Translations under genes and position numbers: made by a program
Assembly (NCBI GenBank): GCA_034429475.1
Contig: DAOUGD010000159.1
Location: 1,604-65,603 of the forward strand
DNA length: 64,000 bases
Reading direction: 5' to 3'
DNA from: Anaerolineae bacterium
GTDB taxonomy: Bacteria > Chloroflexota > Anaerolineae > B4-G1 > SLSP01
Notes under the pieces: model-generated
What the model was told of the DNA's origin: nothing
Database searches by the model: none
The model's input: only the letters and a program-made list of their open reading frames with translations
In this document: piece by piece, positions 3,533-25,859 of the stretch
Position numbering within the stretch: the stretch's first letter is position 1
Layout of the letters: the number at the start of each line of letters is the position of its first letter

Positions 3533-3579
3533 GACGATCTCCTTCAAAAATAGTCAGCAAATGACTCCCTTGAAAATAG

Positions 3580-3640
3580 CCACAGAGATCACAGAGTTCA
3601 CAGAGAAAACCCTTTGTGTCCTTCGTGTCCTTTGTGGTGA
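3580..3640. repeat. Palindromic element with 9-nt periodic arms
   Basis: CCACAGAGATCACAGAGTTCACAGAG...CTTTGTGTCCTTCGTGTCCTTTGTGG. Confidence 0.75.
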
Positions 3641-3642
3641 AA

Positions 3643-3768
3643 ATTTTCATCCAACCGCTGGTGAACCGCCGGTTAATGATGAATTCCTCTGAAAATAGTC
3701 CGATAGTCTTTAGTCTAGTAGTCTGATAGTCATTTTCATCCAACCGCTGGTGAACCGCCGGTTAATGA
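3643..3768. repeat. Two exact 37-bp direct repeats around a 52-bp ATAGTC-rich spacer
   Basis: ATTTTCATCCAACCGCTGGTGAACCGCCGGTTAATGA at 3643-3679 and 3732-3768. Confidence 0.9.
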
Positions 3769-3795
3769 GCAATCCCTTGAAAAAAGGAGGAAGCT

Positions 3796-3847
3796 TCACG
3801 CAAAGGCGCAAAGTAAAGAACTTGGCGGGCCTGGCGCTTTTGCGTGA
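3796..3847. repeat. Palindromic element, ACGCAAAG family
   Basis: TCACGCAAAGGCGCAAAG...GGCGCTTTTGCGTGA. Confidence 0.75.
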
Positions 3848-3876
3848 GATAGTTAATTTCTTCAGCCGGGAATGGC

Positions 3877-4719
3877 TTACGGTCTAATCCATAAAGCCAG
3901 CAAGAACATCAGCAGAGCCATTGTGGCAAATTCGATCACGATCTGACGGGTAAGACGCTTCAGCAGCAGTTGGTAAGTAATACCGTTGAGCAAATACAAC
4001 CCCAACGTGAGCAGCGTGGCCGCAGTCCAGGCGGAAACAGGCCAATAGCCGATGACCCAGGCGACTTCACTCTCCAACAGGGCAATGACGCCACCGTAAA
4101 GCAACACCGCGCCGGCCGGCACGCCGCTGGCGCTGAGCAGTTCCAAAGCCAGGAACCCGCTCAACAAAAAAATCGAAGGGGCGATCACCAGCGCGCGCTC
4201 CTGGCCTTCGATGGTCAGATTAAAAAGCACGAAACCGAGCAGATAATCCAAGATATTGAGCAAGGTACGCGCACTGGGATAAGCGGTAGCCTGCGGAGAA
4301 AAGGCGCGATGGCTCAAGTAGACCAGAACGCCCAACACAACGCCGCCGAGCAGCAAGGTGATCAGCCATACCGACCACGCGGCGGTGGCGCGCACCAGCA
4401 GCCGGGACAACAACAACGCCCCCAGCGTCGGCGTGATAAGCGAAAAACCCAACCAGCGCTCCTGCGCCTGACGCAAGGGATGGGTCTGCATAATCGAGAG
4501 CACGCCAGTCGCCACCAGGCCGGTCATCAAAACGGAAAGCATCCAATCCCCGCCAATAGAAAACCGGAGTGGCGACCCTAAAATTTGGGGAGTACTCCAA
4601 ATAGTGAAAGTCGGCAGTTCGACAAAGCGAAACAAAGTCGCACTGAGCAGGGTCACGGCCAGCAAGACGCTGAGCTGATCGCGTTCCGCGTGCTGTGTTT
4701 TTTGGTTAAGAGCAAACAT
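3877..4719 (-). CDS. Multi-pass membrane protein (DUF5656-like, uncharacterised)
   Basis: About 9 hydrophobic segments. Start set at ATG 4719 because a strong promoter lies 7 nt upstream. The DUF call is from recollection. Confidence 0.65.
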   Translation of the reverse strand: MFALNQKTQHAERDQLSVLLAVTLLSATLFRFVELPTFTIWSTPQILGSPLRFSIGGDWMLSVLMTGLVATGVLSIMQTHPLRQAQERWLGFSLITPTLGALLLSRLLVRATAAWSVWLITLLLGGVVLGVLVYLSHRAFSPQATAYPSARTLLNILDYLLGFVLFNLTIEGQERALVIAPSIFLLSGFLALELLSASGVPAGAVLLYGGVIALLESEVAWVIGYWPVSAWTAATLLTLGLYLLNGITYQLLLKRLTRQIVIEFATMALLMFLLALWIRP

Positions 4720-8774: not shown

Positions 8775-10268
8775 ATGACATCAGCAATCATAATCGGCGC
8801 GGGCATGGGTGGATTGGCCGCCGCCTTGCGTTTGCGACAGCATGGCTTTACTGTGACCGTACTCGAAAAGCAGCCCCGCCCCGGCGGACGCAGCAACGTT
8901 CTGGAAGAAAACGGCTTTCGGGCCGATACCGGGCCTACCATCCTGGTGATGAAGTACGTCTTTGAGGAGCTATACCGCGCGTTGGGGCTGAACCTGGACG
9001 AGCGCGTGCGCTTTGTGCCGCTCGATCCCAATTACCGCATCTACTTCCACGACGACACGAGCCTCGACTTGTTCGGCAATATGGCGCGGCTGTCGGCTGA
9101 AGTGGAGCGCATCGAGCCGGGCGCGACCGAGCGGCTGTTTCGCTTCGTCGGCGCGGGGGCGCAGAAGTATGACCTGGCGATGGAATTCGTCGAGCGCAAC
9201 TACGATCACTTATGGGAACTGGCGAACCCGCGCGCCGGGCTGCGTCTGGTGCGCACGCAAGCGTACCAGCAGCTCTACCACCAGGTCGCCGGCTTCTTCA
9301 AGACCGATAAACTGCGCAAAGCGTTCTCGTTTCATTCGATGTTCTTGGGATTGTCGCCCTTCAAGGCGCTGGCGATGTACAGCCTGATCACCTACGCCGA
9401 TCTGGTGTATGGGATGTACTTCCCCATGGGCGGCATCTACAGCCTGATCGAAGACCTGCTCGCCCTGGCGCGCGAGCGGGATGTGGAAGTGCGCACCGAC
9501 GCGCCGGTGGCTCAAATCCTCGTTGAAGCCGGCCGCGCGGTAGGCGTCAAACTGGAATCCGGGGAGACGCTGCGCGCGGACATGGTCATCTCCAACGCCG
9601 ACCTGCCCTACACATACCAGACGTTGATCCCGGCGGCCTACCGCAAGCAATACTCCGACGCGCGGCTCCAACGCATGGAGTACGCCTGTTCCGGCTACAT
9701 TCTCTTCCTGGGCGTGGACCGGCAGTATCCCCAGATGCGTCACCAGGGGCTGTTCTTCGCCGAGGATTACCGCGCCAATCTCGACGCTATTTTCAGGACG
9801 CATACCATCCCCGACGACATTTCCTTCCATCTGAACAACCCTACCATCACCGATCCGAGCCTGGCGCCGCCGGGCCACAGCCTGCTCTACGTCCTCGCGC
9901 CGATGCCCAACTTGCAAGGGACGGTGGATTGGGACGGCGCCGCGCCGCGCGTCCGCGACAAGCTGCTCACCCGGCTGGAGCGCATTGTGGACCCCGACCT
10001 GCGCCGCCACATCGTCTGGGAGCGGGAGTATCGCCCGACGGATTGGCTGCGCGACACCAACGCGGTGTACGGCACGGCCTTTGGCTCGCTGGCGCACGGC
10101 TTCTTTCAATCGTCCTACTTCCGCCCGCACAACAAGGCTCGCGACATTGGGGGATTGTATTTCGTCGGCCAGGGCACTTACCCCGGCATTGGGATGCCGA
10201 TGGTGCTGATTTCGGCCCGGCTGCTCACCGAACGGATTTTGCGCGATGTGGGGGGAAGCCATGGGTAA
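8775..10268 (+). CDS. crtI: Phytoene desaturase (CrtI family)
   Basis: IIIGAGMGGL FAD motif, DTGPT, YFPMGG, ISNAD, LYFVGQGTYPGIGMPMVLISA. Confidence 0.9.
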   Translation: MTSAIIIGAGMGGLAAALRLRQHGFTVTVLEKQPRPGGRSNVLEENGFRADTGPTILVMKYVFEELYRALGLNLDERVRFVPLDPNYRIYFHDDTSLDLFGNMARLSAEVERIEPGATERLFRFVGAGAQKYDLAMEFVERNYDHLWELANPRAGLRLVRTQAYQQLYHQVAGFFKTDKLRKAFSFHSMFLGLSPFKALAMYSLITYADLVYGMYFPMGGIYSLIEDLLALARERDVEVRTDAPVAQILVEAGRAVGVKLESGETLRADMVISNADLPYTYQTLIPAAYRKQYSDARLQRMEYACSGYILFLGVDRQYPQMRHQGLFFAEDYRANLDAIFRTHTIPDDISFHLNNPTITDPSLAPPGHSLLYVLAPMPNLQGTVDWDGAAPRVRDKLLTRLERIVDPDLRRHIVWEREYRPTDWLRDTNAVYGTAFGSLAHGFFQSSYFRPHNKARDIGGLYFVGQGTYPGIGMPMVLISARLLTERILRDVGGSHG

Positions 10269-11211
10269 GCTACCGCCTGAATTGGCGGCAGATTACGCGG
10301 CCTGCCGCCAAATCATGTTCGCCGCGAGCAAAAACTACTCGTTTGCCAGCCGGGTGCTGCCGCCGGACAAGTTGCCGCACGTCGAGGCGCTCTACGCGCT
10401 GATGCGGGTGGGCGACGACCGGGTGGATGTGTCGGCGACGGGGTTTGACTCGGCGCTGGACGCCATTCAGGATTGGGAAACGCGCTACTGGGACGCTTTC
10501 GCGCAGGGGCGCGCCGACCATCCCGTGATGCGCGCCTACCTCCACACGGCCTTGACGTACCGCATCCCGCCGGAAACCATGCGCCCATATTTTCGCGCCA
10601 TGCGGGACGACCTCACCGTCACCCGCTTCCCCACCTTTGCCGATTTGCTACACTACATGGAAGGGAGCGCGCTGCCGGTGGGGCGCGCCCTGACGCATAT
10701 CCTGGGCGTGCGCGCGCCGCAGACCCTGGCGCAAGCGCTCTCCCACGCCGACAGCCTCGCGACCGCGATGCAGTTGAGCAACTTCTGGCGCGATATTGCG
10801 GAGGATTGGGCGCGCGGGCGCATCTATCTGCCGTTGGAGGATATGCAGCGGTTTGGCGTCGCCGAAGCGGAACTGAGCCGGGGAGACGTCTCGCCGGCCT
10901 TTGCCGCGTTGTTGCAATTTGAGATCGCGCGCACCGAGTCGTACTATCAACATGCCTACGACGGCGTTTCATGCCTGGCGACCGGGCGTTGGGGAGTGAT
11001 GAGCAGTCTTCACATCTACCACATGATCTTGCGCGACATCCGCCGCCGGCGCTATGATGTGTTCACCCGCCGGGCGGGGACCAATCACCTGGAAAAATTC
11101 GCCTGCGCCACCCTGGCGTGGTTCGAAACGAACGGCTTGATGTGCCGCACCATCCCAGGCGCGCGCACGCCGGAAGCCGCTCCCATGATGGAAATTTCAG
11201 GGAACGCTTAA
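10261..11211 (+). CDS. crtB: Phytoene synthase
   Basis: YALMRVGDDRVD, MQLSNFWRDIAED..RGRIYLP. ATG 10261 overlaps the crtI stop. Confidence 0.9.
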   Translation: MGKLPPELAADYAACRQIMFAASKNYSFASRVLPPDKLPHVEALYALMRVGDDRVDVSATGFDSALDAIQDWETRYWDAFAQGRADHPVMRAYLHTALTYRIPPETMRPYFRAMRDDLTVTRFPTFADLLHYMEGSALPVGRALTHILGVRAPQTLAQALSHADSLATAMQLSNFWRDIAEDWARGRIYLPLEDMQRFGVAEAELSRGDVSPAFAALLQFEIARTESYYQHAYDGVSCLATGRWGVMSSLHIYHMILRDIRRRRYDVFTRRAGTNHLEKFACATLAWFETNGLMCRTIPGARTPEAAPMMEISGNA

Positions 11212-14031
11212 CTCCAGCGCCGGCGCGCCGTTGGCGCTGAGGATTTCTCCCGTTTCCTGACGATACCACCCCACCCGCAGGATATAAGGCCCTGCCGGCA
11301 AGGCGTCCGGCAAGGTCAGCGTGTGGTCATCTGCGACAATTTCCCCCGCCAGCCACAACGAGGTGGGATAGGTGGCGCGGCGCGGCGCTTCGTCCACCTG
11401 CGCGATGAGCGTTTCCCCGGTTTCGGTCAGCAAGTGGATGAACACCACGTAATCCGCGCGCACCTCGGCCTGCGTCTGCCAGTACAACGTCACCCCGAAA
11501 GCCTGCCCGGCCTGCGGCGCGGCGGCGTCGTAGCCGAGCAGGCGCAGATGTCCCCCACCCTCAGCTTCCACAAACTCCGCCTGGAAAGGATGTTGCACGG
11601 CCGGCAAAGCGAAATTCCGCGCAAGCGCCTGGACTTCCACGACGCCGAGGGCGACCGGCGGCGCAGCATCCAGCGCAAGCGCCGCCGTATACGCGCCCGG
11701 CGCGAGCGTCTTGGGCAGGCGCAACAGATAACGGCCCTCCACCACCTCGCCGACGCGCCAGGCGGCGAGCGGGAAGTCGGGCGACGGCGGCCCGCTGTAG
11801 AGCGTGTGCGTCTCCGGGCCGGTCAACGTCAAAGACAGGGAAGTGGCGGAGGGAACGTCCGCCGCCTGCCAGCACGCTTTCACCAGAAGGCGCGCGCCCG
11901 GCAGAGCGGTTTCCACCGGCGGCGTCCACCCCAGGAGACGGACGTCCCCCTGCGTCACCGGATCACGACGGGGTATGTCGGGGCAAGCGGCCGCCGCTTC
12001 TTCCGGCGTGGGGACGCGGGTCGCCGGGGCAACCGCCAGGCCGGTTGCGGGCAGGAGCGCCTCCAGCCCGGCGAAGCGTTCATCTTTCAGGCGGGGCAGC
12101 GCTGTCCCGGCGTCGGGATTGTAGAAACCCACGCTCAACTGATAGCCGTCGCCCGGCGGCGTCCCGACAGGGGGCGTGAGCGTCAGTTGATCCAACACCA
12201 CGTCGCCCGGCGTCCACTGCTCCGGCGGATAGTGGAAGGCCATCGTCCGCGCCCACTCGCCGGTCTGCGGGTGGGTCAGACGCACCACCGGCTCCAATGC
12301 CGGATAGGGCGCGCACGCCTCCCACGTGAGCAGCACCGGACACGGTTCGGCAACGCGACACTCTGCGGCGGGGCGGGCGTCGTGAAGCAGCACGACGTGG
12401 GCGAAGTCCGCCGCCGCGCCGTCCGCCGCCGGGCGCAGCGCGGCGATGGCGGCAGCGTCCAGTCGGTAAGCGGTGAGCGCGGGCGTCCCGTCCGGGCCGG
12501 GATAGTCGCGGCGCGTCCAGGCGCGGGCGACGGCGTCCGGCCAGGCGGCGGGCGCGGGCAGAGAGCGCGGGATGAGATAGAGCGCGTCGCCCTGGGGCGG
12601 CAGCACCAGCGACGCGCCGCCGGTGAGCCATTTGGCCGCGCTATACTGGCGGGCCAGCGCGGCGACGGTAGGATGGCGGTAGTGTTGGCTGGCGATGTAG
12701 ACGGTGGTGTCGCGTAGATCGGTCGCGTCAAGGACTTGCGCGGTCAACGTCATGTCGCCATCCGTCGTGGCGAACAATGCGGGAGATGCGGCCCACGTCC
12801 GGTAACTTTGCCCGGCCCACAGTCCGCCGCCGCCGAGCAGCAACAGGGCGCAGCCCACGCGCGCGGCAGGCCGGAGGCGCAGCGTCTCCCAAAGCACAAC
12901 CAGCCCCCAGGCCGGAAGGATCGCCAGAAAGGGCCACAGCCCCACCAGCCGCAGATTGCTCGGCGTGATTTCGCCGGTGGCGAGCGCGCTGGGCAGCAGC
13001 ATCACCAAGAGCGCGCCCAACAAAAAGTGGCGGGAGGAATGTCTCAACGGATGGAACGGAGGGGAACGGAAGGGGAATCCGTTAAAATCCGTTAAATCCG
13101 TTGAGAAAAGCCATGCCCCCAATCCAATGATCGCCAGGAGCGCGGAAAGGGGATCCCATAGCGGGCGTCCAGGGATGTTGAAACGCACGTAAGCGTCGCC
13201 GGCGCCGGGCCAGACGAGAGCGCGGGCGCACTGCCAGAAACCGCGCGCGGCATCCTGCCAGGAGGCGGCGGCCACTTGCGTGATGCGGGTGCTGAACGCT
13301 TCGGGGTGGCGCAGGAAGTGCCATCCCAGCGGGGCAAAGACGACGAGGGCGACGGCGAGCGCGAGGAGCAATCGCCAAAATCGCTTCCGGCGTTCTTCCG
13401 GCGAGACGCCAAGGAGCGTCGCGGCCAGCGCCAATCCCAGGGGGATGGGGAACAGCCGCGCCGCCAGGTACGTGTAGCCGGTCAGCCCCAGGCAGAGGCC
13501 GCCGGCCGCAAACCAGCGCGTTTTGCCGGTGCGCAGTCCGAACCAGAGGGCGGCAACGGTGAGGGCTTGCAGCAACGGCTGCGAGATGGCGCGGAATCCG
13601 TAGCGGCTGAGGAGCAGGTGCGGAAAAGCGACCGCGACGCCGCCCGCCGCGAGGAGCGCGATCTGCCGGGCGCGGCGGCCAGGGCCGAGCAGGGCGCGGG
13701 TCGCCGGGTAGGTCGCGGCGACGGTCAGCACACCCAACAGCGCAGACGCCAGCCGCATTCCCCATACGGCCTGCCCGGTGATCCAGACCCAGAAGGCGGC
13801 GACGTAAAAAAAGAGGACTTCCTTGCCGGTGTAGGCGTGGATGAAAATGGGCCGGTAGCCGCCAGAGACGATCTGACGGATGAGAATGGTGTTGGCGGCC
13901 TCGTCATAGTGCAAGCCCAAGGGAAGGTGGGGCAAATCCCACAGGCGCAGCACAGTTGCAAGCAAGATAATGAGGAGAATGCCCCACCGGTGATTCTGGA
14001 TTTTGGATTTTGGATTTTGGATTTTGGACAA
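11197..14031 (-). CDS. GT-C (ArnT/PMT_2, GT39-like) membrane glycosyltransferase with repeated C-terminal Ig-like domains
   Basis: GLHYDEAAN motif, about 12 TMs, repeated LLGY..VTLYW..Y.VFIHL..YPTSLW..GEIV.D modules. Start uncertain (TTG 14031 used). Confidence 0.8.
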   Translation of the reverse strand: MSKIQNPKSKIQNHRWGILLIILLATVLRLWDLPHLPLGLHYDEAANTILIRQIVSGGYRPIFIHAYTGKEVLFFYVAAFWVWITGQAVWGMRLASALLGVLTVAATYPATRALLGPGRRARQIALLAAGGVAVAFPHLLLSRYGFRAISQPLLQALTVAALWFGLRTGKTRWFAAGGLCLGLTGYTYLAARLFPIPLGLALAATLLGVSPEERRKRFWRLLLALAVALVVFAPLGWHFLRHPEAFSTRITQVAAASWQDAARGFWQCARALVWPGAGDAYVRFNIPGRPLWDPLSALLAIIGLGAWLFSTDLTDFNGFPFRSPPFHPLRHSSRHFLLGALLVMLLPSALATGEITPSNLRLVGLWPFLAILPAWGLVVLWETLRLRPAARVGCALLLLGGGGLWAGQSYRTWAASPALFATTDGDMTLTAQVLDATDLRDTTVYIASQHYRHPTVAALARQYSAAKWLTGGASLVLPPQGDALYLIPRSLPAPAAWPDAVARAWTRRDYPGPDGTPALTAYRLDAAAIAALRPAADGAAADFAHVVLLHDARPAAECRVAEPCPVLLTWEACAPYPALEPVVRLTHPQTGEWARTMAFHYPPEQWTPGDVVLDQLTLTPPVGTPPGDGYQLSVGFYNPDAGTALPRLKDERFAGLEALLPATGLAVAPATRVPTPEEAAAACPDIPRRDPVTQGDVRLLGWTPPVETALPGARLLVKACWQAADVPSATSLSLTLTGPETHTLYSGPPSPDFPLAAWRVGEVVEGRYLLRLPKTLAPGAYTAALALDAAPPVALGVVEVQALARNFALPAVQHPFQAEFVEAEGGGHLRLLGYDAAAPQAGQAFGVTLYWQTQAEVRADYVVFIHLLTETGETLIAQVDEAPRRATYPTSLWLAGEIVADDHTLTLPDALPAGPYILRVGWYRQETGEILSANGAPALELSVP
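13042..13106. repeat. AACGGA-type palindrome inside the GT-C coding sequence
   Basis: TCTCAACGGATGGAACGGAGGGGAACGGAAGGGGAATCCGTTAAAATCCGTTAAATCCGTTGAGA. Confidence 0.85.
13993..14027. repeat. Heptamer tandem repeat (ATTTTGG)x4 plus one imperfect unit
   Basis: Read directly; encodes SKIQNPKSKIQN on the minus strand. Confidence 0.9.
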
Positions 14032-14084
14032 GGTTAGGAATTTTGGAGAGTCTGGCGCGTTCGGAGACCGGCCCAACCAGCCCT

Positions 14085-14117: not shown

Positions 14118-14705
14118 TTACGGCTTCGGCTGGCCCTGTTGGGGAGCGGCGTCGGTGCAGCCTTCGAGGTTGGCGCAGAGCGTGTCGCACATCGCCTGGG
14201 TGGTGCCGGCGTAGAGGATGAAGAACGTGTTGCCGTCGCGTTCCAGGGTGTAGTTGCCGGTGCAGGGCTTGAAGGTGATGGCTTGCGTGCCGAATCCCTC
14301 TTTGGCCGTGGGGTTGACACAGCGGAAGAAGTTGACGGGATCGAGCAGGGCCTTTTTGTCGGCGACAGCGACCGCCCCGGCCTCCAACGGCTCTTCCTGA
14401 TTGCTGTATACCCGCGCTTTTACCGCGCCGATTTCCTGATAACAGGTCACGATGTGGTCTACGCCGGCGATAGTCGCGGAAAGTTCAGGGTGGCCTGCCA
14501 GCAGGGCCGCGCCCTCACTCAGGTTGGAAATGTAGCCGGTCAGGGTTTCCCCTTCGATCGCGTCGTAGCCGCTCAGGGTAGGCAACAGCTTCTCGGCGGG
14601 AGCCATCTCCGGCTTTTTCCCCAGGCCAGGGATGAATTCGCAGCCGCTTAGCAGAACAATCAGCAAGAGGGCATAAAGCAGGCGGTGGATGGATAATTTT
14701 GACAT
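14118..14705 (-). CDS. Hypothetical lipoprotein
   Basis: Signal peptide with LLSGC lipobox; SD AAGGAG; four further Cys in the C-terminal half. Confidence 0.75.
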   Translation of the reverse strand: MSKLSIHRLLYALLLIVLLSGCEFIPGLGKKPEMAPAEKLLPTLSGYDAIEGETLTGYISNLSEGAALLAGHPELSATIAGVDHIVTCYQEIGAVKARVYSNQEEPLEAGAVAVADKKALLDPVNFFRCVNPTAKEGFGTQAITFKPCTGNYTLERDGNTFFILYAGTTQAMCDTLCANLEGCTDAAPQQGQPKP

Positions 14706-14936: not shown

Positions 14937-15749
14937 ATGATTGCTTACCTCAAGGAATTGTGGGCCTATCGTGAGTTGGTCTATAATCTGGTGCTGCGCG
15001 ATCTCAAGGTGCGGTATAAAAATTCGGTGCTGGGCGTCGTGTGGTCATGGTTGAATCCCTTGCTGATGATGTTGGTGTTCACGCTGGTGTTCGATGTGTT
15101 GGGGCTGGCGCGGCAGGACATCTCCAATTATCACATCTTCTTCTTGAGCGCGCTGCTGCCCTGGAACTTCTTCTCCGGCTCGGTGATGGGGGGGATTCCA
15201 TGCATCGTCAGCAATGGACACTTGATCAAGAAAGTGTATTTCCCCCGCGAGGTGCTGCCAATTTCGGTGGTGCTGTCGAATATGGTGAACTTTGTGGTGG
15301 CGCTGCCGGTTTTCTTCCTGCTGGCGCTAATTTTCGGCCAGCGGATCACGCCGTGGGTGCTGCTCCTGCCCATCCCCATTTTGATTCAAGTCATTTTTGC
15401 GTGCGGGATCGTGTTGTTTCTTTCAACGTTGGAAGTGTTTTATCGGGATACGCACATGTTGATGGACCCGCTTATCCAGGCGTGGTTCTTCATCACGCCC
15501 ATCATTTATTCGTACAAAGACCTCCCCGACAAGGTGACGCTTTTGAACATCACCTTCAACCCGCAGACCTGGATTTTCCGCCTGAACCCGATGGCGTCCA
15601 TTATCAACACGTATCAGGATATTTTGTACCGCGGTGAACTGACCCGGTGGGATTTCCTGTCGCGCACGGGGGCGACGGCGCTGGTGGTGTTGCTGTTTGG
15701 CTACTGGTTTTTCCGGCGCTTCAGCGGCAAGTTTGGAGAGACGGTGTAA
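14937..15749 (+). CDS. ABC-2 type polysaccharide export permease (Wzm/TagG-like)
   Basis: RDLKVRYKNSVLGVVWSWLNPLL, IKKVYFPREVLP, YRD, LNPMASII motifs. Confidence 0.9.
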   Translation: MIAYLKELWAYRELVYNLVLRDLKVRYKNSVLGVVWSWLNPLLMMLVFTLVFDVLGLARQDISNYHIFFLSALLPWNFFSGSVMGGIPCIVSNGHLIKKVYFPREVLPISVVLSNMVNFVVALPVFFLLALIFGQRITPWVLLLPIPILIQVIFACGIVLFLSTLEVFYRDTHMLMDPLIQAWFFITPIIYSYKDLPDKVTLLNITFNPQTWIFRLNPMASIINTYQDILYRGELTRWDFLSRTGATALVVLLFGYWFFRRFSGKFGETV

Positions 15750-15779: not shown

Positions 15780-16835
15780 ATGAATGGAAAGACCGTAGTC
15801 AGCAACCTGTCAGTCTATGGCCTCACCCACGCGCTGGTAGACGCGGCGTGTATCGCCACCCTTTTCGCCATCGTCGCGCGCGATCCTACTAACCCGCAGA
15901 GCGCTTTCCTGATCATCTTCTACAACGTGCTGGCCTTTGCCACGCAACCGCTCTTTGGTCTGTTGGCCGATCGCTTCAACGCGCCCGTCCACGCGGCGGT
16001 GTGGGGGACGCTGTTGGTCGCAGCGGCCACGTTGGTTCTCCCGCTCCCGCTGCTGGCGGTGGGGATAACGGGGATCGGCAATGCCTTGTTTCACGTCGGG
16101 GGCGGCGCCATCAGCCTGAAGCTGGCCGATGGCAAGGCGGCCCTGCCGGGGATTTACGTGGCGCCCGGCGCATTAGGGTTGGCGCTAGGGCTGTGGATCG
16201 GCAAAAGCGGGCACTTTGTCGCCTGGCCGTTCATCCTGCTGTTGCTGGCCGCCGCCGGGCTGATGGTGAAACTCCCCCGTCCGGCGCCCGCCGCGCCCCG
16301 CCCGTTGCCGGCCGATCTGCGCTGGTTCGAGGCGGTGCTCCTGTTGCTGCTCGTCTCCGTGGCGATTCGGGGCATGGTGGGCATGAGCCTCGTGCTGCCG
16401 TGGAAGTCGGAGCCGGTTTTGCTCGTTATCCTGACAGCGGCGGTCGTGTTGGGAAAAGCCCTGGGCGGTGTCCTGGGCGACCGGTTCGGGTGGACCAGAG
16501 TGGCTGTGGCGGGGCTAGTCCTCGCAACCCCTTTGCTCACGTTCTTCGCCCATACGCCGGCGCTCGCCATCCTGGGCGTCTTTTTGTTCAACCTGACCAT
16601 GCCGGTGACGCTCATCTGTGTTTCCGAGATGTTGCCGGGGTATAGCGGCTTTGCTTTCGGGTTGACGGCGTTGGCCCTGGTCATCGGCGCCTGGCCCGTC
16701 TTTACGCCGCTCCGCACTTTGACAGGCCATCCGGCAGCCATCTTCGCCGCCATTCTCATTTCCATAGTCGCTTTGTACGGGGGGCTGCGGTTGTACACCG
16801 ATCACTTTAGCGCGCCCGTCTCAGCGCATGGTTGA
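15780..16835 (+). CDS. Atypical MFS-like transporter
   Basis: About 11-12 hydrophobic segments; motif-A-like GLLADRF and GGVLGDRFG; polar motifs THALVD, YNVLAFATQP, GNALFHVGGG. Confidence 0.75.
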   Translation: MNGKTVVSNLSVYGLTHALVDAACIATLFAIVARDPTNPQSAFLIIFYNVLAFATQPLFGLLADRFNAPVHAAVWGTLLVAAATLVLPLPLLAVGITGIGNALFHVGGGAISLKLADGKAALPGIYVAPGALGLALGLWIGKSGHFVAWPFILLLLAAAGLMVKLPRPAPAAPRPLPADLRWFEAVLLLLLVSVAIRGMVGMSLVLPWKSEPVLLVILTAAVVLGKALGGVLGDRFGWTRVAVAGLVLATPLLTFFAHTPALAILGVFLFNLTMPVTLICVSEMLPGYSGFAFGLTALALVIGAWPVFTPLRTLTGHPAAIFAAILISIVALYGGLRLYTDHFSAPVSAHG

Positions 16836-16869
16836 ATGTAACCTGGGGCCAAGCGCAAAGGAGACTGCT

Positions 16870-17085
16870 ATGAAAACGGTTTTTCCGCAACTATCCATGG
16901 GCATTCTATCCTTTCTGACAGAAGCAATATGCGCTGACATCCCTCCACCAGACATATATTCCACGGAGGCAGTAGAAGCGACGACGAATTCTATGCTGGG
17001 ACTTGGTCTTGTTGTCATCATTATGGTTCTCGCCGCGTTTGTAGTGCTCAGGGCAATCAACAAGAAGAGACGTACTGAAAAATAG
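16870..17085 (+). CDS. Small membrane protein 1 (71 aa; leader-ADIPPP-TM-RAINKKRR)
   Basis: SD AAGGAG, ATG 16870; shares architecture with the next two ORFs. Confidence 0.7.
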   Translation: MKTVFPQLSMGILSFLTEAICADIPPPDIYSTEAVEATTNSMLGLGLVVIIMVLAAFVVLRAINKKRRTEK

Positions 17086-17101
17086 ACGATAGGAGGAGGC
17101 T

Positions 17102-17314
17102 ATGAAACCAGGATTGTTGCTGCTATGGGGATTGGAGTTGCTGGCACGGCTGCCGCTGCAAGGTATATTTGCCGATGCTGCGCCGCCGATGGAGTTTTTC
17201 ATCGTGCTGGGGGTGGGGGCGCTGATTGTGCTCGGCTTCATTGTCGTTGTCATTGTCGGCATTTCGATTCTGGTGATCAGGGCAATCAAGAAGCGCAGAA
17301 CTGCGGAAGAGTAG
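17102..17314 (+). CDS. Small membrane protein 2 (70 aa; leader-ADAAPP-TM-RAIKKRR)
   Basis: Strong SD AGGAGG; paralog of its neighbours. Confidence 0.75.
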   Translation: MKPGLLLLWGLELLARLPLQGIFADAAPPMEFFIVLGVGALIVLGFIVVVIVGISILVIRAIKKRRTAEE

Positions 17315-17326
17315 CAGAAGGGTGCT

Positions 17327-17533
17327 GTGAAACCAGGATTCTTGCAACTATTGGGGCTGATTTTACTCTTGCGCCTGCCAGAGCAGGGCGTGTACCTTGA
17401 CCTTGTGCCCCCATGGCCGCTGTTCGGAATAGGACTGAGTATCGTGGTGGCGCTTGGTATCTTGATCGCCGTCATCGTTCTCCTCGCATATTTGGCATTG
17501 AGAGGAGTCAAGGATACGTACTCTCGAAAATGA
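17327..17533 (+). CDS. Small membrane protein 3 (68 aa; leader-LDLVPP-TM-RGVK..RK)
   Basis: GTG start with AGAAGGG SD; 5' DNA very similar to protein 2. Confidence 0.7.
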   Translation: MKPGFLQLLGLILLLRLPEQGVYLDLVPPWPLFGIGLSIVVALGILIAVIVLLAYLALRGVKDTYSRK

Positions 17534-17561
17534 GAGCTGAACACGCGGTTCACGGGGCGCT

Positions 17562-17897
17562 ATGTTGGGCAAATACCTCCTCGCCCTGGACCTGACCCTG
17601 ATCATTGAAGGGGGCGTGGCCTATCTGCTCGGATTCCGCAGCCGCCGGGACGTGTTGACCGTTGCCCTGGTCAGCGTGATCACACACCCAATTCTGAACT
17701 ATGTCCTCCTGGTTCTCGGCTATCTGGGCCTGGAGGTGACTCCAGGGTTGGTCACACTCCTGGAAGTCCTGGTGGTCGTTGCGGAATGGCGCTTGCTGGC
17801 CTATGCTTCCGGCAAATCCCAAAGGCAATGCCTCGTCACATCCTTATTGGCAAATGCGGCGTCATTTCTCGTGGGTATCTTGCTCTTTTGGCTATGA
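17562..17897 (+). CDS. Uncharacterised 4-TM membrane protein (111 aa)
   Basis: Four hydrophobic helices carrying LTLIIE, ITHP, LEVLVVVAE and SLLANAASF. Confidence 0.75.
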   Translation: MLGKYLLALDLTLIIEGGVAYLLGFRSRRDVLTVALVSVITHPILNYVLLVLGYLGLEVTPGLVTLLEVLVVVAEWRLLAYASGKSQRQCLVTSLLANAASFLVGILLFWL

Positions 17898-17990: not shown

Positions 17991-18653
17991 CTACTGGAGG
18001 GCTTGCCACACGCACATCACGGCCAGGAAGAGCAGCGTCAGAATGAGAATGACCTTCACCCCACGGGCCACCACCCGCCGGATCGTGGTTATCTTCCCCT
18101 GATCGAAGAGGAGTGGCCGCCCGGTCAGCGCCGAAAGCAGACCGCCCAAAACACCCACCAGGCCAACAGCCAATGGCGTCGTCCAGATCTGACCGCTCAA
18201 ATACCATCCCATCCAGGTCGCCAAAAACGCTACCAGCCCCACCCCTATGCCGATCCAGCCCATCTGCCGGAAAAAGCGACGGCGCGCGGGATCGTCGGCA
18301 TCGCGCTCCAGCATTTCCCCTTGGCGCCGCCGCTGCGTGGCGAAACTTTCCCGGAAAGTCGCCGCGGCAGACACGGCCTCACGCCTTTCTTCCCCGAACA
18401 GCCAGGGCATGTCTGTGAAGTAGCGTAACACCGTCGTCGGAATCATCCAAACGATAAAGACCAGCAGATATGCCAACAGCGCGCCGAGAATCTGGCTCTC
18501 GCGCCGCCCAATCCACAGCAAGGCTTGTTGCAGCCAGTGATATGGCCCGCTGTCCAGGATCAGCCAGCGCAGCCAGATAGCGGTGATCACCCCCAACAAA
18601 ATGAAAAGGATGACCCGAAAAACCGGGGCGGAAATGTAACGTTTGCGTTTCAT
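17991..18653 (-). CDS. Hypothetical membrane protein
   Basis: SD AGGAG; about 5 TMs with a charged cytoplasmic loop. Confidence 0.7.
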   Translation of the reverse strand: MKRKRYISAPVFRVILFILLGVITAIWLRWLILDSGPYHWLQQALLWIGRRESQILGALLAYLLVFIVWMIPTTVLRYFTDMPWLFGEERREAVSAAATFRESFATQRRRQGEMLERDADDPARRRFFRQMGWIGIGVGLVAFLATWMGWYLSGQIWTTPLAVGLVGVLGGLLSALTGRPLLFDQGKITTIRRVVARGVKVILILTLLFLAVMCVWQALQ

Positions 18654-22469: not shown

Positions 22470-25400
22470 ATGCCTGACCTGAAACGTGTTGATCTCTGGA
22501 AAATTATCGCCGTCGTCATCCTGATTCTGGCGGTGGTCAGCCGGTTTTACATGCTCGGCGAGCGGGCGGTGAGTCACGACGAGACGACGCACGCCAAGTA
22601 TTCGTGGAATTTTTATGCAGGGAAGGGGTTTCAGCACGATCCGCTGATGCACGGAACGTTGTTGTTTGAGGCGACCGCGCTGTTCTACTTCCTCTTTGGC
22701 GTGAGCGATTTCACAGCGCGGTTGTACGCGGCGCTGGCAGGCATCGCGCTGGTGATGGCGCCGCTGTTGTTCCACCGGTGGCTGGGACGGCGCGGCGCGC
22801 TGCTGGCCTCGTTCATGGTGTTGATTTCGCCGGCCATCACCTACTACTCCCGCTACACCCGGCACGACATCCCACTATTGCTCTACATGACGCTGTTTCT
22901 CTGGACGATCTTGCGCTATCTGGACGAGGGCAAGCCCAAATGGCTCTATGGGATGGCCGCGTTCTTCCCCCTGATGTACGCCACGAAAGAAAACGCCTAC
23001 ATCTACACCGCGATCTTCGTGGTGCTGCTGGCGTTGCCGTTCGCCTGGCAGGTCTTCCGCGCGCGCTGGGCGCGGCCGGAACTATTGCAAATCCTGCTGA
23101 TCGTTCTGGTCGTCGCGCTGCTGCTGGGAGCGGTGTTTGCCATCTCCTTCCGCAGCGGGCAGGTGACGATCTACAAGGAAGAAGGCTCCGACCGCGCCGA
23201 CGAAGTCCACGTCATCGTGCCGGTGTGGGGACGGGCGGCGTTGGGGCTGGCGGTGGTGCTGGCGCTGGGCGCGGTGGTCGTAGTCTACAACGGGGTGGGC
23301 GCGGAAACGATGCGCGACCTGCGCCTCTTCGACGTGCTGATGACCCTGGGCACGCTCACCCTACCCCTGGGGTCGGCCCTCCTCATCAACTTCGTCGTCG
23401 GCGCGGACATGAAAACGTTTTACACCGCGCTGATGGCGCCGGCGAGCAACAGCCTGCCCGGCCCCACCCTCTTCGGCGTCGTCCTGGCGGTGCTGGCGAC
23501 GCTGGGCCTCTCGATTGCACTGGGTCTGTGGTGGAATTCCGCCCGCTGGCCTATTATCGCGCTCATCCACTACGGCATCTTCTTTGTGACCTACAGCTCC
23601 TTCTTCACCTACGGCTGGGGGATGTTCACCGGCTTGATCGGCGGGCTGGCCTACTGGATGGCGCAGCAGGGCGTTCAACGGGGCACACAGCCCTGGTACT
23701 ACTACGGACTCGTCGGCCCGCTGTACGAATACCTGCCCCTCCTCTTTTCCATTCCGGCGGGCGTGGCAGCCATAGGCCATGCCTTCAAAATCAGCAAATC
23801 AGCGGATCAGCGAGTCAGCGAATCAGCGAATCAGCAAAGCGATGGATCGGCGATCTCGGAACCCCAAACCCCAAACCCCAAACCCCAAACCCAGCACTCA
23901 GCACTCGTCAACCGCCTGTTTCCGCTTTTCCTGTTGGCCTGGGCCTTGCTTTCCTGGGTCGCCTACGCCTACGCCGGGGAGAAAATGCCCTGGTTGTTCG
24001 TCCATATCGCGTTCCCGCACCTCCTGCTGGCCGCGTGGGGACTGGGCCGCTGGCTAGAAGACGTGACGTGGGACGACCTCATCGCGCGGCGCGGGTGGGT
24101 GCTGCCGGTCGCGCTGTTTTTCCTATGGCGCGCGTTGGCCGCGTACCTGGGCGCCACCGCCGACATCCGGGAAGCGTTCTTCGGCGAAGAGGGCATCAAG
24201 ATGACTCTGGAACGTTTGCAACCTCTGGGAACCGTATCGGGCGTGTTCGGCGGCGTGCTGTTGTTCGGCGGGCTGACCTTCTGGGCGGCGGATGCGTTGG
24301 GCTGGCGGCGCGCGGGGAAGCTGACGCTGCTGACGATCACAGGCATCATCGCCGGCTTTACCGTGCGCACGATGATCATGCTGAATTACATCAACGCCGA
24401 ACTGCCCACCGAGTACATGGTCTACGCGCACGCCACGCCGGACGTGAAAGTGGCCCTACGGCAAATCGAGGACGTCTCCTGGCGGTTGACGGGCACGCCA
24501 CACAACGTCCAGGTGGCCTTTGATTGGGACATCGCCTGGCCGTTTATGTGGTACATGGACACACAATACCCGAATCACTACACGCTGCCCGACCCCATTG
24601 ACGCGGAACGCCTGTTGAACAGCCCCGTGATCCTGGTCGGCAGAGATAAGTGGGCCGAAGTGGAAACCATCGTTGGCGACACCTACGAAGCGTTCAACTA
24701 CAAATCCATCTGGTGGCCGATTGAGGACTACAAAGACTTAACACTGGAGCGCATACAGACGGCTTTAGCCGATCCCCTCCGGCGCGCGGCCCTCATGGAC
24801 ATCATCCGCGACCGGGACTACACCGCGTACGCCCGGCTGCGGGACCCGGAAGCGTCGTTCACCCTCCAGACATGGCCGCACCGTGTGGAATTCCGCCTGT
24901 ACGTGCGGCGCGATCTGTCGCCGGAAGTGTGGCGCTACCGACTGGAGACGGACGGTGTCAGCGATACGCCGCAGGCGGAGACGGACACCGTTCAGGACAT
25001 ATTTGCAGAAAAGGTGCGCGCGTTGGCGGCGACGTTGCGTACCAACCTGCCGAAGGCCGCCGCGCGCGGCCTCGCCGTGGCACCGGACGGCACCCTCTAC
25101 GTGAGCGATACAGCGCAGCATCGCCTCTGGCATCTGGCGACGAATGGCGCCCTGTTAGACGACTGGGGCGGTTACGGCGCAGGGGAAGGCCAGTTCAACG
25201 AACCCTGGGGGGTGGCCGTAGACGCGCAGGGCAACGTCTACGTGGCGGATACGTGGAATCACCGCGTGCAGAAGTTTGACGCACAGGGGCAGTTCCTTCT
25301 GAGCTGGGGGCATTTCTCCCAGGTGCAGGCGTATGACCTGGGCGGGCAGGGCGTGTTCTACGGGCCGCGCGGCATCGCGGTCGGGCCGGAGGGGGCGATC

Positions 25401-25859
25401 TACGTGGCCGACACTGGCAACCAGCGCGTACAGGTGTTCGACGCCGAGGGCCGCTTCCTGACCGAGTTCGGCGGCGCGGGCGATGCGTTGGGCCGTTTGA
25501 ACGAGCCGACCGGCATCGCGGTGGACGCGGGCGGCCAGGTGTTCGTCGCCGACACATGGAACCGGCGCGTGCAAGTCTTTACGGCAGAGGGCGTCCCTTT
25601 GCGGGAGTGGACGATCCCGACCTGGACAGGCTCCGATCCGGAAGAAAAGCCGGCTCTCGCCGTACGCGCCGACATGGTGTATGTGGCCGATCCCGTCAAT
25701 GGGCGCGTGTTGGTATGGACTGATACGGGAACCGCTGCCTGGGCGCTAAGAGATGTGGCAGACGAGTTAACCTTGTTGGGTGGGATCGCGCTTTCTCAAA
25801 CCACGATATATGTAGTGGATGCGCACACCGGAGGAGTTCGAGGATATCCATTGCCATAG
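22470..25859 (+). CDS. TIGR03663/Agl23-like GT-C membrane protein fused to an NHL-repeat beta-propeller
   Basis: SHDETTH, HDPLMHG, YYSRYTRHDI, EKMPWL motifs; C-terminal FNEPWGVAVD..VYVADTWNHRVQKF repeats. Confidence 0.85.
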   Translation: MPDLKRVDLWKIIAVVILILAVVSRFYMLGERAVSHDETTHAKYSWNFYAGKGFQHDPLMHGTLLFEATALFYFLFGVSDFTARLYAALAGIALVMAPLLFHRWLGRRGALLASFMVLISPAITYYSRYTRHDIPLLLYMTLFLWTILRYLDEGKPKWLYGMAAFFPLMYATKENAYIYTAIFVVLLALPFAWQVFRARWARPELLQILLIVLVVALLLGAVFAISFRSGQVTIYKEEGSDRADEVHVIVPVWGRAALGLAVVLALGAVVVVYNGVGAETMRDLRLFDVLMTLGTLTLPLGSALLINFVVGADMKTFYTALMAPASNSLPGPTLFGVVLAVLATLGLSIALGLWWNSARWPIIALIHYGIFFVTYSSFFTYGWGMFTGLIGGLAYWMAQQGVQRGTQPWYYYGLVGPLYEYLPLLFSIPAGVAAIGHAFKISKSADQRVSESANQQSDGSAISEPQTPNPKPQTQHSALVNRLFPLFLLAWALLSWVAYAYAGEKMPWLFVHIAFPHLLLAAWGLGRWLEDVTWDDLIARRGWVLPVALFFLWRALAAYLGATADIREAFFGEEGIKMTLERLQPLGTVSGVFGGVLLFGGLTFWAADALGWRRAGKLTLLTITGIIAGFTVRTMIMLNYINAELPTEYMVYAHATPDVKVALRQIEDVSWRLTGTPHNVQVAFDWDIAWPFMWYMDTQYPNHYTLPDPIDAERLLNSPVILVGRDKWAEVETIVGDTYEAFNYKSIWWPIEDYKDLTLERIQTALADPLRRAALMDIIRDRDYTAYARLRDPEASFTLQTWPHRVEFRLYVRRDLSPEVWRYRLETDGVSDTPQAETDTVQDIFAEKVRALAATLRTNLPKAAARGLAVAPDGTLYVSDTAQHRLWHLATNGALLDDWGGYGAGEGQFNEPWGVAVDAQGNVYVADTWNHRVQKFDAQGQFLLSWGHFSQVQAYDLGGQGVFYGPRGIAVGPEGAIYVADTGNQRVQVFDAEGRFLTEFGGAGDALGRLNEPTGIAVDAGGQVFVADTWNRRVQVFTAEGVPLREWTIPTWTGSDPEEKPALAVRADMVYVADPVNGRVLVWTDTGTAAWALRDVADELTLLGGIALSQTTIYVVDAHTGGVRGYPLP
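23789..23908 (+). repeat. In-frame tandem repeat block (8-mer x6; AACCCCA x4)
   Basis: AATCAGCG-like x6 at 23789-23836; AACCCCA x4 at 23860-23887, followed by AACCCAG CACTCAG. Confidence 0.9.

Follow-up and report, generated by a model that had tools for sequence, protein, structure and literature searches.

Tandem single-helix micro-proteins of an Anaerolineae bacterium belong to a widespread family encoded within a three-gene membrane module

Transporters of the major facilitator superfamily (MFS) can carry a single-pass accessory subunit, as in the MCT–basigin pair. MFSD1–GLMP is a further example (bioRxiv 10.1101/2023.12.15.570541), and small single-helix transporter partners are also known, e.g. 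KdpF with KdpABC and AcrZ with AcrB (PMC12648545). Here we describe a locus of an Anaerolineae bacterium (assembly GCA_034429475.1, contig DAOUGD010000159.1, positions 1,604 to 65,603; this stretch of 64,000 nucleotides is hereafter called the window) in which three short genes in tandem, P1, P2 and P3, each encode a micro-protein with a leader, an Asp-Pro motif, a single transmembrane helix (TM) and a basic tail. We show that P1–P3 are diverged tandem paralogues of a widespread and unannotated micro-protein family. Their neighbours encode an MFS-like permease and a tri-glutamate four-helix membrane protein, and the reading that we favour, with a probability of roughly one half, is that P1–P3 are bitopic small subunits of a heteromeric complex formed with these two proteins. 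The nearest known kind would thus be the small membrane-protein partner of a transporter, here placed inside an undescribed three-gene module.

The comparison with KdpF and AcrZ rests on size (fewer than 100 residues), on the possession of one TM, on a gene within or next to a polytopic transporter's operon, and on the helix-on-helix packing in the membrane by which such partners are thought to act. The resemblance is functional only: P1–P3 have no Pfam or NCBIfam sequence membership in common with KdpF, AcrZ or MgtS. Furthermore, unlike KdpF and AcrZ, the micro-proteins described here have a cleavable-looking leader followed by a D-V-A-P-P-P sequence that is predicted to be N-terminal and extracytoplasmic, they come with a second, four-helix partner, they recurrently form tandem arrays and they occasionally contain passenger regions. 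The likeness to MFSD1–GLMP and MCT–basigin lies in a permease of MFS fold tightly complexed with a type I single-pass protein, the complex being a predicted one in our case. These systems differ from ours in that they are eukaryotic, have accessory subunits with large glycosylated ectodomains and lack a third, four-helix partner; no homology is expected.

Three paralogous genes and their family

P1, P2 and P3 are real genes, intact on the + strand (Table 1). The original prediction, made from the window sequence alone, had described them as three paralogous single-TM open reading frames (ORFs) with a D-x-x-P-P motif after a leader, and this description is borne out by sequence shuffling, by a family of 270 profile matches and by 32 of 56 loci retrieved through a neighbouring gene. 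Smith–Waterman scores compared with those of 2000 composition-preserving shuffles gave z = 17.5 for P2–P3, 9.3 for P1–P2 and 5.8 for P1–P3. The observed scores were reached by none of the 2000 global shuffles, and 3 of 2000 segment-preserving shuffles reached that of P1–P3. When the three proteins are aligned, 11 columns are invariant, among them those of the Asp, of two Pro and of the Arg that follows the TM. P1 comprises a leader (residues 1–22, ending in EAICA), D23-IPPP, a 15-residue acidic linker, the TM and the tail LRAINKKRRTEK (LRAINKKRR). P2, the copy nearest to the family consensus, comprises a leader (residues 1–24, ending in QGIFA), D25-AAPP, a hydrophobic segment of about 30 residues and the tail IRAIKKRRTAEE (IRAIKKRR). 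The P3 leader (residues 1–24) ends with Leu instead of Ala and is followed by D25-LVPP, the TM and the tail LRGVKDTYSRK. The ORF translations confirm the positions 23, 25 and 25 first given for the Asp, whose codons are at 16936–38, 17174–76 and 17399–401, respectively. Each ORF had also been credited with its own Shine–Dalgarno sequence; this sequence is clear for P1 (GGAG at 16860–63) and P2 (GGAGGAGG at 17092–99), whereas that of P3 is weak (GAAGGG only).

The sequence similarity extends to the DNA. As had been noticed from the letters, P2 and P3 resemble each other at their 5′ ends in a DNA alignment, and P1 and P2 share at their 3′ ends a 50-nt direct repeat of 72% identity. The genes are paralogues that arose by duplication. 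Conservation is seen at the leader terminus, in the Asp-Pro motif and from the TM to the basic tail, and the stretch between motif and TM varies, as illustrated by the 15-residue acidic insert of P1. The accompanying hint at a variable core, in the manner of ribosomally synthesized and post-translationally modified peptides, found no support since no modifying enzyme is present among the conserved neighbours. P1 and P2 are called as genes in the NCBI and JGI records, and P3 in Logan-derived records only; the expectation that annotation pipelines miss such ORFs is therefore partly correct.

Between the 351-aa gene at the upstream end and the 111-aa gene at the downstream end, consecutive genes are separated by 12–34 nt. 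No terminator-like site was found between the genes of the operon, no promoter excess was found inside the array, and an Rfam scan of the array gave no match. Given the small gaps and the lack of a terminator-like site or Rfam match between the genes, the array and its two flanking genes probably share one transcript. Type I toxins such as Ldr, Ibs and Hok have their own promoters, antisense RNAs, no leader and a narrow distribution. Arrays of these toxins are also made of tandem short hydrophobic ORFs, but the ORFs studied here lie within an operon; an RNA element or type I toxin array was rejected on the basis of the Rfam, terminator and promoter results.

P1–P3 match no model of Pfam, NCBIfam (cut-off E <= 0.01), PADLOC or PHROGs, a literature search on the motif strings returned unrelated papers only, and word-indexed searches detected few relatives. 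A full HMMER search of 1.84 billion representatives with a 19-sequence profile yielded 270 matches at E <= 1e-3, nearly all of 64–104 aa, so that the family comprises at least 270 clusters at 50% identity (P1 scores 77 bits against this profile, which includes it). The top 141 matches, when read through, exhibit a single layout: a Sec-type leader ends in [VA]-x-A, D-[VI]-A-P-P-P comes next, and 0 to about 25 linker residues separate this motif from a single TM with the basic tail I-R-A-I-K-K-x-R. Residue frequencies around the Asp (position 0) were computed from 173 unique family sequences: V (45%) and A (39%) at −3, A (84%) and L (10%) at −1, V (45%) and I (16%) at +1, A (43%) at +2, and P at +3 to +5 (56, 65 and 56%), the Pro columns being partly enforced because the anchoring rule required a Pro at most five residues from the Asp. 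Seventeen sequences could not be anchored in this way, several of them with Asn in place of Asp, a replacement found in about 5% of the family members. The leader has a median length of 24 residues, and the TM starts 5–22 residues after the Asp (5th–95th percentile), the distance reaching about 200 residues in P0180, a passenger-bearing member of 258 aa. The hydrophobic stretch (median 24 residues) is followed by R/K (95%), x, I (55%), [RK] and [KR], and the tails, mostly of 6–32 residues, have a mean net charge of +4.45 over their first 10 residues. Acidic linkers and basic tails are typical of these micro-proteins. In several proteins the Asp-Pro motif is doubled in tandem within one chain, e.g. 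LDIALPP-TDVVPP or LDIAPPP-ADVAPPP (L054 2395–2628, L056 1694–1927, L058 3709–3966, L019 21–218, P0133 and P0154).

The position of the motif bears on the suggestion that the TM and basic tail constitute a CTERM sorting signal with almost no passenger. In PEP-CTERM, LPXTG and GlyGly-CTERM signals, the motif abuts the TM. The known pairs of signal and enzyme are PEP-CTERM/exosortase, LPXTG/sortase, GlyGly-CTERM/rhombosortase and PGF-CTERM/archaeosortase. The micro-proteins resemble C-terminal sorting signals in their signature motif, their TM, their C-terminal basic cluster and the presence of a polytopic partner encoded nearby. They differ from them in a motif whose position follows the leader end rather than the TM, in a partner that is unrelated to the known sorting enzymes, and in a gene ratio of approximately 1:1, compared with many substrates per enzyme. 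Nineteen family members compared with NCBIfam gave scattered weak TM-driven matches only, none to a CTERM or sortase-substrate model, and neither sortase, exosortase, archaeosortase nor rhombosortase occurs among the conserved neighbours. Three of the four defining features tested thus fail, the TM with its basic cluster being the only one found, and the CTERM assignment is unsupported because the motif tracks the leader end and not the TM, and because there is neither a sortase-type enzyme among these neighbours nor a CTERM model match.

The family could also be followed in close relatives. The DNA of window positions 16800–17600 is present at 100% identity on 12 public contigs, including the metagenome-assembled genome GCA_964465495.1. 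The DNA of a sister species, whose proteins NCBI labels "Anaerolineae bacterium", is 96.6% identical to the window, and the alignment ends at window position 17293. This species contains P1 (93% identical) and P2; P3 is absent, as its 110-aa gene begins 2 nt past P2. A more distant relative, L009, has only one P2-like copy (P0004), so that the copy numbers among close relatives are 3, 2 and 1. The best matches of P2 are single-copy genes in other Anaerolineae; such genes match the window copies about as well as do their own paralogues, and P1 better. As the window copies are no closer to each other than to genes of other Anaerolineae, either the duplications are old or the copies evolve fast. 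Independent tandem arrays exist in L039 (two copies) and L099 (three), indicating that amplification to two or three tandem copies took place on more than one occasion. That of L099 (960–2295) encodes micro-proteins of 113, 135 and 71 aa, two of which have long acidic Pro-rich linkers, and is flanked by an MFS-like gene on one side and a four-helix gene of 102 aa on the other, i.e. a window-like architecture in an unrelated lineage.

The + strand frame of the micro-proteins is under purifying selection: the ratio of nonsynonymous to synonymous substitution rates (dN/dS) is 0.12–0.6 in 17 pairs with dS up to 1.5, and 0.117 for P2 and its single-copy L009 orthologue. The value for P1 and the sister species (0.54) derives from only 8 differences and is too weak alone, and divergent pairs were used instead.

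These data make it very improbable that the array consists of chance open frames or decaying pseudogenes, or that the true feature is an antisense ORF of 215 aa (window 16906–17553, − strand) covering all three micro-ORFs. Such a view could draw on P3, with its GTG start, weak Shine–Dalgarno sequence, degenerate tail, absence from the sister species and lack of a call by NCBI and JGI, and on the P1 dN/dS value with its 8 differences. Nevertheless, the layout is kept in hundreds of clusters and in synteny, purifying selection acts on the + strand frame, and Rfam gave no match. The Pfam scan of the antisense ORF was likewise negative, and the sister species, which lacks P3, lacks part of this ORF as well; base composition is its most likely origin. 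Relaxation or decay may still concern P3, but not P1 or P2. Note that the G+C content is 0.50–0.56 over the array (window 16600–17600) compared with 0.62–0.69 in the MFS-like gene and 0.64–0.70 beyond 18800.

A conserved trio of membrane-protein genes

To examine the gene neighbourhood independently of the micro-ORFs, the loci (12 genome and 68 metagenome loci) were fetched by the 111-aa family. Upstream DNA of at least 350 nt was available in 56 loci, and in 32 of these the ORF immediately preceding the 111-aa gene is a micro-ORF with all elements of the layout. Elsewhere, the same layout was found in only 8 of 2767 ORFs of 35–200 aa, and seven of these eight are also linked to the module, six lying immediately 3′ of a gene for the fused partners and the seventh after the MFS-like gene in L021. 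The order MFS-like gene, micro-protein gene(s), four-helix gene was observed in 35 loci mapped with hidden Markov models (HMMs), several of which are near-identical pairs, and the four-helix gene adjoins a micro-protein gene in nearly all loci with enough flanking DNA. The reverse test gave the same picture: five of five micro-protein profile matches adjoin a gene of 102–114 aa, confirmed by HMM as a member of the four-helix family in four cases. All three genes occur in Chloroflexota, Coriobacteriia, Clostridium sp., Minisyncoccia (Minisyncoccota) and Berkelbacteria, and the genes flanking the trio vary from locus to locus and are not conserved. In a Nanoarchaeia (DPANN) contig, the four-helix gene is at the very start of the contig, with the upstream region out of view.

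MFS proteins are made of twelve helices in two halves, with motif A (G-x-L-A-D-R-x-G) after TM2 and TM8. The upstream 351-aa protein is a divergent member of this superfamily, as judged from its helices, its motif A and its match to Pfam MFS_1 (36.6 bits, cut-off 33.4). Motif-A-like sequences, GLLADRF and GVLGDRFGW, were read from the sequence, and twelve helices are present in a single-sequence AlphaFold2 (AF2) model that served for the helix count only, its confidence being low (predicted local distance difference test score (pLDDT) of 49). H17, D21, N49, D64, N101, H105, R197 and K226 are invariant in the MFS-like family.

The AF2 model of the downstream 111-aa protein has four helices and a pLDDT of 92.6. 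Its family (38 clusters) has the invariant residues Y5, E16, G24, T41, E68, E75, N98 and S101. Two assignments of this protein were rejected. A relation to small multidrug resistance proteins such as EmrE is unsupported, since it has no match to Pfam Multi_Drug_Res and hhalign of the family profile with EmrE gave a probability of 0.2%. The idea of a lycopene cyclase was prompted by crtI- and crtB-like genes upstream; the protein matches no family, and the module is found in lineages and contexts without carotenoid genes. In three loci the four-helix gene stands alone, without an MFS-like or micro-protein gene upstream (L038 2880–3215, L040 4001–4336 and L053 4001–4414, frameshifted in the last); these lone genes may be decaying module remnants.

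Several gene arrangements constitute indirect evidence for a physical association of the products. In 10 rumen loci, the MFS-like and four-helix partners are fused into one chain of 440–455 aa in which, when aligned, helix 1 of the four-helix domain occupies the position of MFS helix 12. L096 contains an MFS-like gene followed by two consecutive micro-protein/four-helix pairs, and in L021 (Coriobacteriia), where the genes are on divergent strands, one micro-protein gene follows the MFS-like gene and another precedes the four-helix gene, which suggests that each partner has its own copy. The L096 locus (2356–4600) adjoins CbiA- and CbiC-type cobalamin genes, and its pairs encode proteins of 72 and 114 aa and of 79 and 113 aa; in L021 (135–527 (−), 688–1887 (−) and 2580–3259 (+)), one copy has Asn for Asp (AWA-NSPNP). 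In a further protein, of 295 aa from Erysipelotrichaceae (L026 5449–6336), a signal peptide and VYA-DSGPKPS are followed by a domain of about 150 aa and then by a four-helix domain. This protein may represent a passenger-bearing micro-protein fused to its four-helix partner and was treated as weak evidence; its passenger shows no similarity to that of P0180.

These arrangements also bear on whether the micro-proteins are modulators of the MFS-like permease only, dispensable for core function in the manner of AcrZ or MgtS, with the 111-aa gene merely co-transcribed. Transporters are known to have small bitopic modulators (PMC12648545), the micro-protein gene comes directly after the permease gene in the 35 loci, and one copy in L021 follows the MFS-like gene on that gene's strand. 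We nonetheless hold this to be unlikely, since the micro-protein and four-helix genes occur together with no MFS-like gene within several kb in L023 (Actinomycetota), L066, L097 and L098, and since they were duplicated together in L096.

Assembly, topology and competing readings

We infer leader cleavage, topology, physical association and a transport role for the micro-proteins from the above sequence patterns, as follows. A Sec signal cleaved by signal peptidase I has a basic n-region, a hydrophobic h-region and small residues at −3 and −1. The P1 leader fits this pattern, and the family has a site of the signal peptidase type (V or A at −3, 84%; A at −1, 84%). Together with the acidic or neutral linker and the basic tail, this site predicts a type I micro-protein, with D-V-A-P-P-P outside and I-R-A-I-K-K inside. 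For the MFS-like protein, twelve predicted helices and motif-A-like loops lead us to expect an N-in, C-in topology. The basic residues of the four-helix protein are in loops 1 and 3 (RSRRD and GKSQRQ), which by the positive-inside rule would place its N-terminus outside; the fusion after only 11 MFS helices agrees with this orientation.

The micro-protein would thus be made with a Sec-type leader, in most family members probably removed by signal peptidase I at the Ala(−1)–Asp(+1) bond. This would leave a mature chain of about 45 residues, with the N-terminal D-[VI]-A-P-P-P on the outer membrane face, one membrane-spanning helix and the basic I-R-A-I-K-K-x-R on the cytoplasmic face. Its gene would belong to an autonomous three-gene operon, whose four-helix product would have three invariant glutamates embedded in the membrane. 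The micro-protein TM may pack on the four-helix protein, on the permease or on both, the Asp-Pro peptide docking on their outer face, to give a heteromeric membrane complex that is probably a transporter. In the window species, three alternative versions of the subunit would be available, as against two in the sister species and one in the distant relative.

A number of observations weigh against this assembly. First, the Anaerolineae leaders are poor Sec signal peptides: that of P2 has E12 and R16 in its hydrophobic core and that of P3 has Leu at −1. Second, some lineages, including part of the Clostridium type, are nearly leaderless, with leaders of 2–10 residues (e.g. MLLLDVAPIP or MLDIAPIP), which means that cleavage by signal peptidase I is not universal. 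Third, the rumen variants have about 100 K/E-rich residues between motif and TM and no signal peptide; this predicts the opposite orientation, for which our model gives no explanation. These micro-proteins (119–166 aa; loci L074, L081, L084, L086 and L087, and also L077, L079, L080, L085, L090 and L093) are encoded just downstream of the fusion gene and have the motif at the extreme N-terminus (MTLYLLDVIATP, MLDIAPIP), a C-terminal TM and an RR tail. Fourth, members with passenger domains such as P0180 fit a targeting or processing tag as well as a subunit. Finally, both partners are structurally isolated. A PDB sequence search with the profile of the MFS-like protein found no relative, the divergence of this protein being too great for a match. 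The four-helix protein has no structural or sequence relative in the libraries searched: a Foldseek search of the PDB with its model returned nothing below E = 2.8, and no relative was found in Pfam, NCBIfam, PADLOC, PHROGs or a PDB sequence search with its profile.

The passenger-bearing and leaderless members are what a dedicated processing or sorting system would accommodate. In such a system, a generalised form of the initial CTERM idea, the micro-proteins would be substrates (nearly passenger-less ones in the window), the signal would be the Asp-Pro motif, the TM plus basic tail, or both, and the 111-aa tri-glutamate protein would be the membrane enzyme that cleaves or transfers them. Indeed, a tripartite arrangement of motif, TM and basic cluster is present, the polytopic partner has invariant polar residues inside the membrane, unrelated regions are inserted between motif and TM in some members (P0180 and the acidic linkers of L099), and in the leaderless members the Asp is still preceded by hydrophobic residues that might indicate a cleavage site for an enzyme other than signal peptidase I. 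The objections raised above against a CTERM signal nevertheless apply here too, namely a motif tied to the leader end at a variable distance from the TM, no match to curated CTERM or sortase-substrate models, and no homologue of the four sorting enzymes as a conserved neighbour. In addition, there is about one substrate gene per partner and the pair is duplicated together, the fusion of partner and MFS permease points to a transport complex, and about 5% of members have Asn where the others have Asp, which speaks for a structural function of this residue and against a chemical one. We therefore judge a processing substrate to be a rather unlikely description of P1–P3. A related and likewise doubtful proposal makes the four-helix protein a new minimal intramembrane enzyme or ion-coupled element acting on a hydrophobic-Asp-Val-Ala-Pro-Pro signal, with the MFS-like protein handling the product and the arrays giving rise to processed membrane peptides or tags. 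Such an enzyme might remove the leaders that signal peptidase I cannot, including those of 2–10 residues.

The gene order also recalls Sec-dependent class II bacteriocin loci, which encode small membrane immunity proteins. Like these loci, ours has leader-bearing hydrophobic peptides, some in tandem, near a small multi-pass protein and a transporter. The array would then encode variants of a membrane-active peptide toxin or bacteriocin, the MFS-like protein being the exporter and the four-helix protein conferring immunity, and the copy-number differences between close relatives as well as the fast evolution of P1 and P3 would be in keeping with this. However, the family and its two motifs are kept over at least four bacterial phyla, including the reduced-genome candidate phyla radiation (CPR), under purifying selection. 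A helix of 20–30 residues followed by R-x-I-K-K-x-R is a stop-transfer anchor that would hold the peptide in the membrane of the producer, and the supposed exporter and immunity protein are fused in the 10 rumen loci. Pfam and NCBIfam scans found no double-glycine leader, C39 peptidase ABC (ATP-binding cassette) exporter or modifying enzyme, and the PADLOC and PHROG scans gave no match. Overall, a bacteriocin locus appears distinctly improbable, and the assembly of P1–P3 as small subunits with the permease and the four-helix protein remains our preferred reading.

Surroundings of the operon and implications

The coordinates of the genes discussed are collected in Table 1. The ABC-2-type permease gene probably belongs, in this genome, to the same transcript as the MFS-like gene. 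It was rejected as a part of the module, since it is a neighbour only in close relatives and in one other locus and is absent in L100 and L101.

Table 1. Genes of the array and its immediate neighbours (window coordinates)
Gene	Position	Strand	Product size	Remarks
ABC-2-type permease	14937–15749	+		Pfam ABC2_membrane 1e-14; 30 nt upstream of the MFS-like gene
MFS-like permease	15780–16835	+	351 aa	module gene 1; 12 predicted helices
P1	16870–17085	+	71 aa	micro-protein ORF; ATG start
P2	17102–17314	+	70 aa	micro-protein ORF; ATG start
P3	17327–17533	+	68 aa	micro-protein ORF; GTG start; tail most divergent of the three
Four-helix membrane protein	17562–17897	+	111 aa	module gene 3

The operon is flanked by a 195-aa gene (window 14118–14705, −) and a 220-aa gene (17991–18653, −), both retained in the close relatives L009 and L010. 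Neither product has a family match beyond a sub-threshold DUF6234, and that of the 220-aa gene is a predicted membrane protein. Further upstream (8775–14076), phytoene desaturase-like and phytoene/squalene synthase-like genes (8775–11211) adjoin a gene for a 959-aa PMT_2-type glycosyltransferase-like protein (−); downstream, a 1129-aa protein combines PMT_2 with NHL repeats (22470–25859). This stretch of the window looks devoted to membrane and envelope functions.

With this family, the known repertoire of small membrane proteins in bacteria grows by at least 270 clusters, and P3, uncalled in the NCBI and JGI records, illustrates that gene callers still miss members of this family. The present analysis also exposes a conserved three-gene membrane module, two of whose three components have no Pfam, NCBIfam or PDB relative and which spans Chloroflexota, Actinomycetota, Bacillota and reduced-genome CPR bacteria. 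The module offers a testable example of an apparent dependence of an MFS-type protein on small partner subunits. That it is present in scavenging-dependent organisms points to a basic function in uptake or in the envelope.

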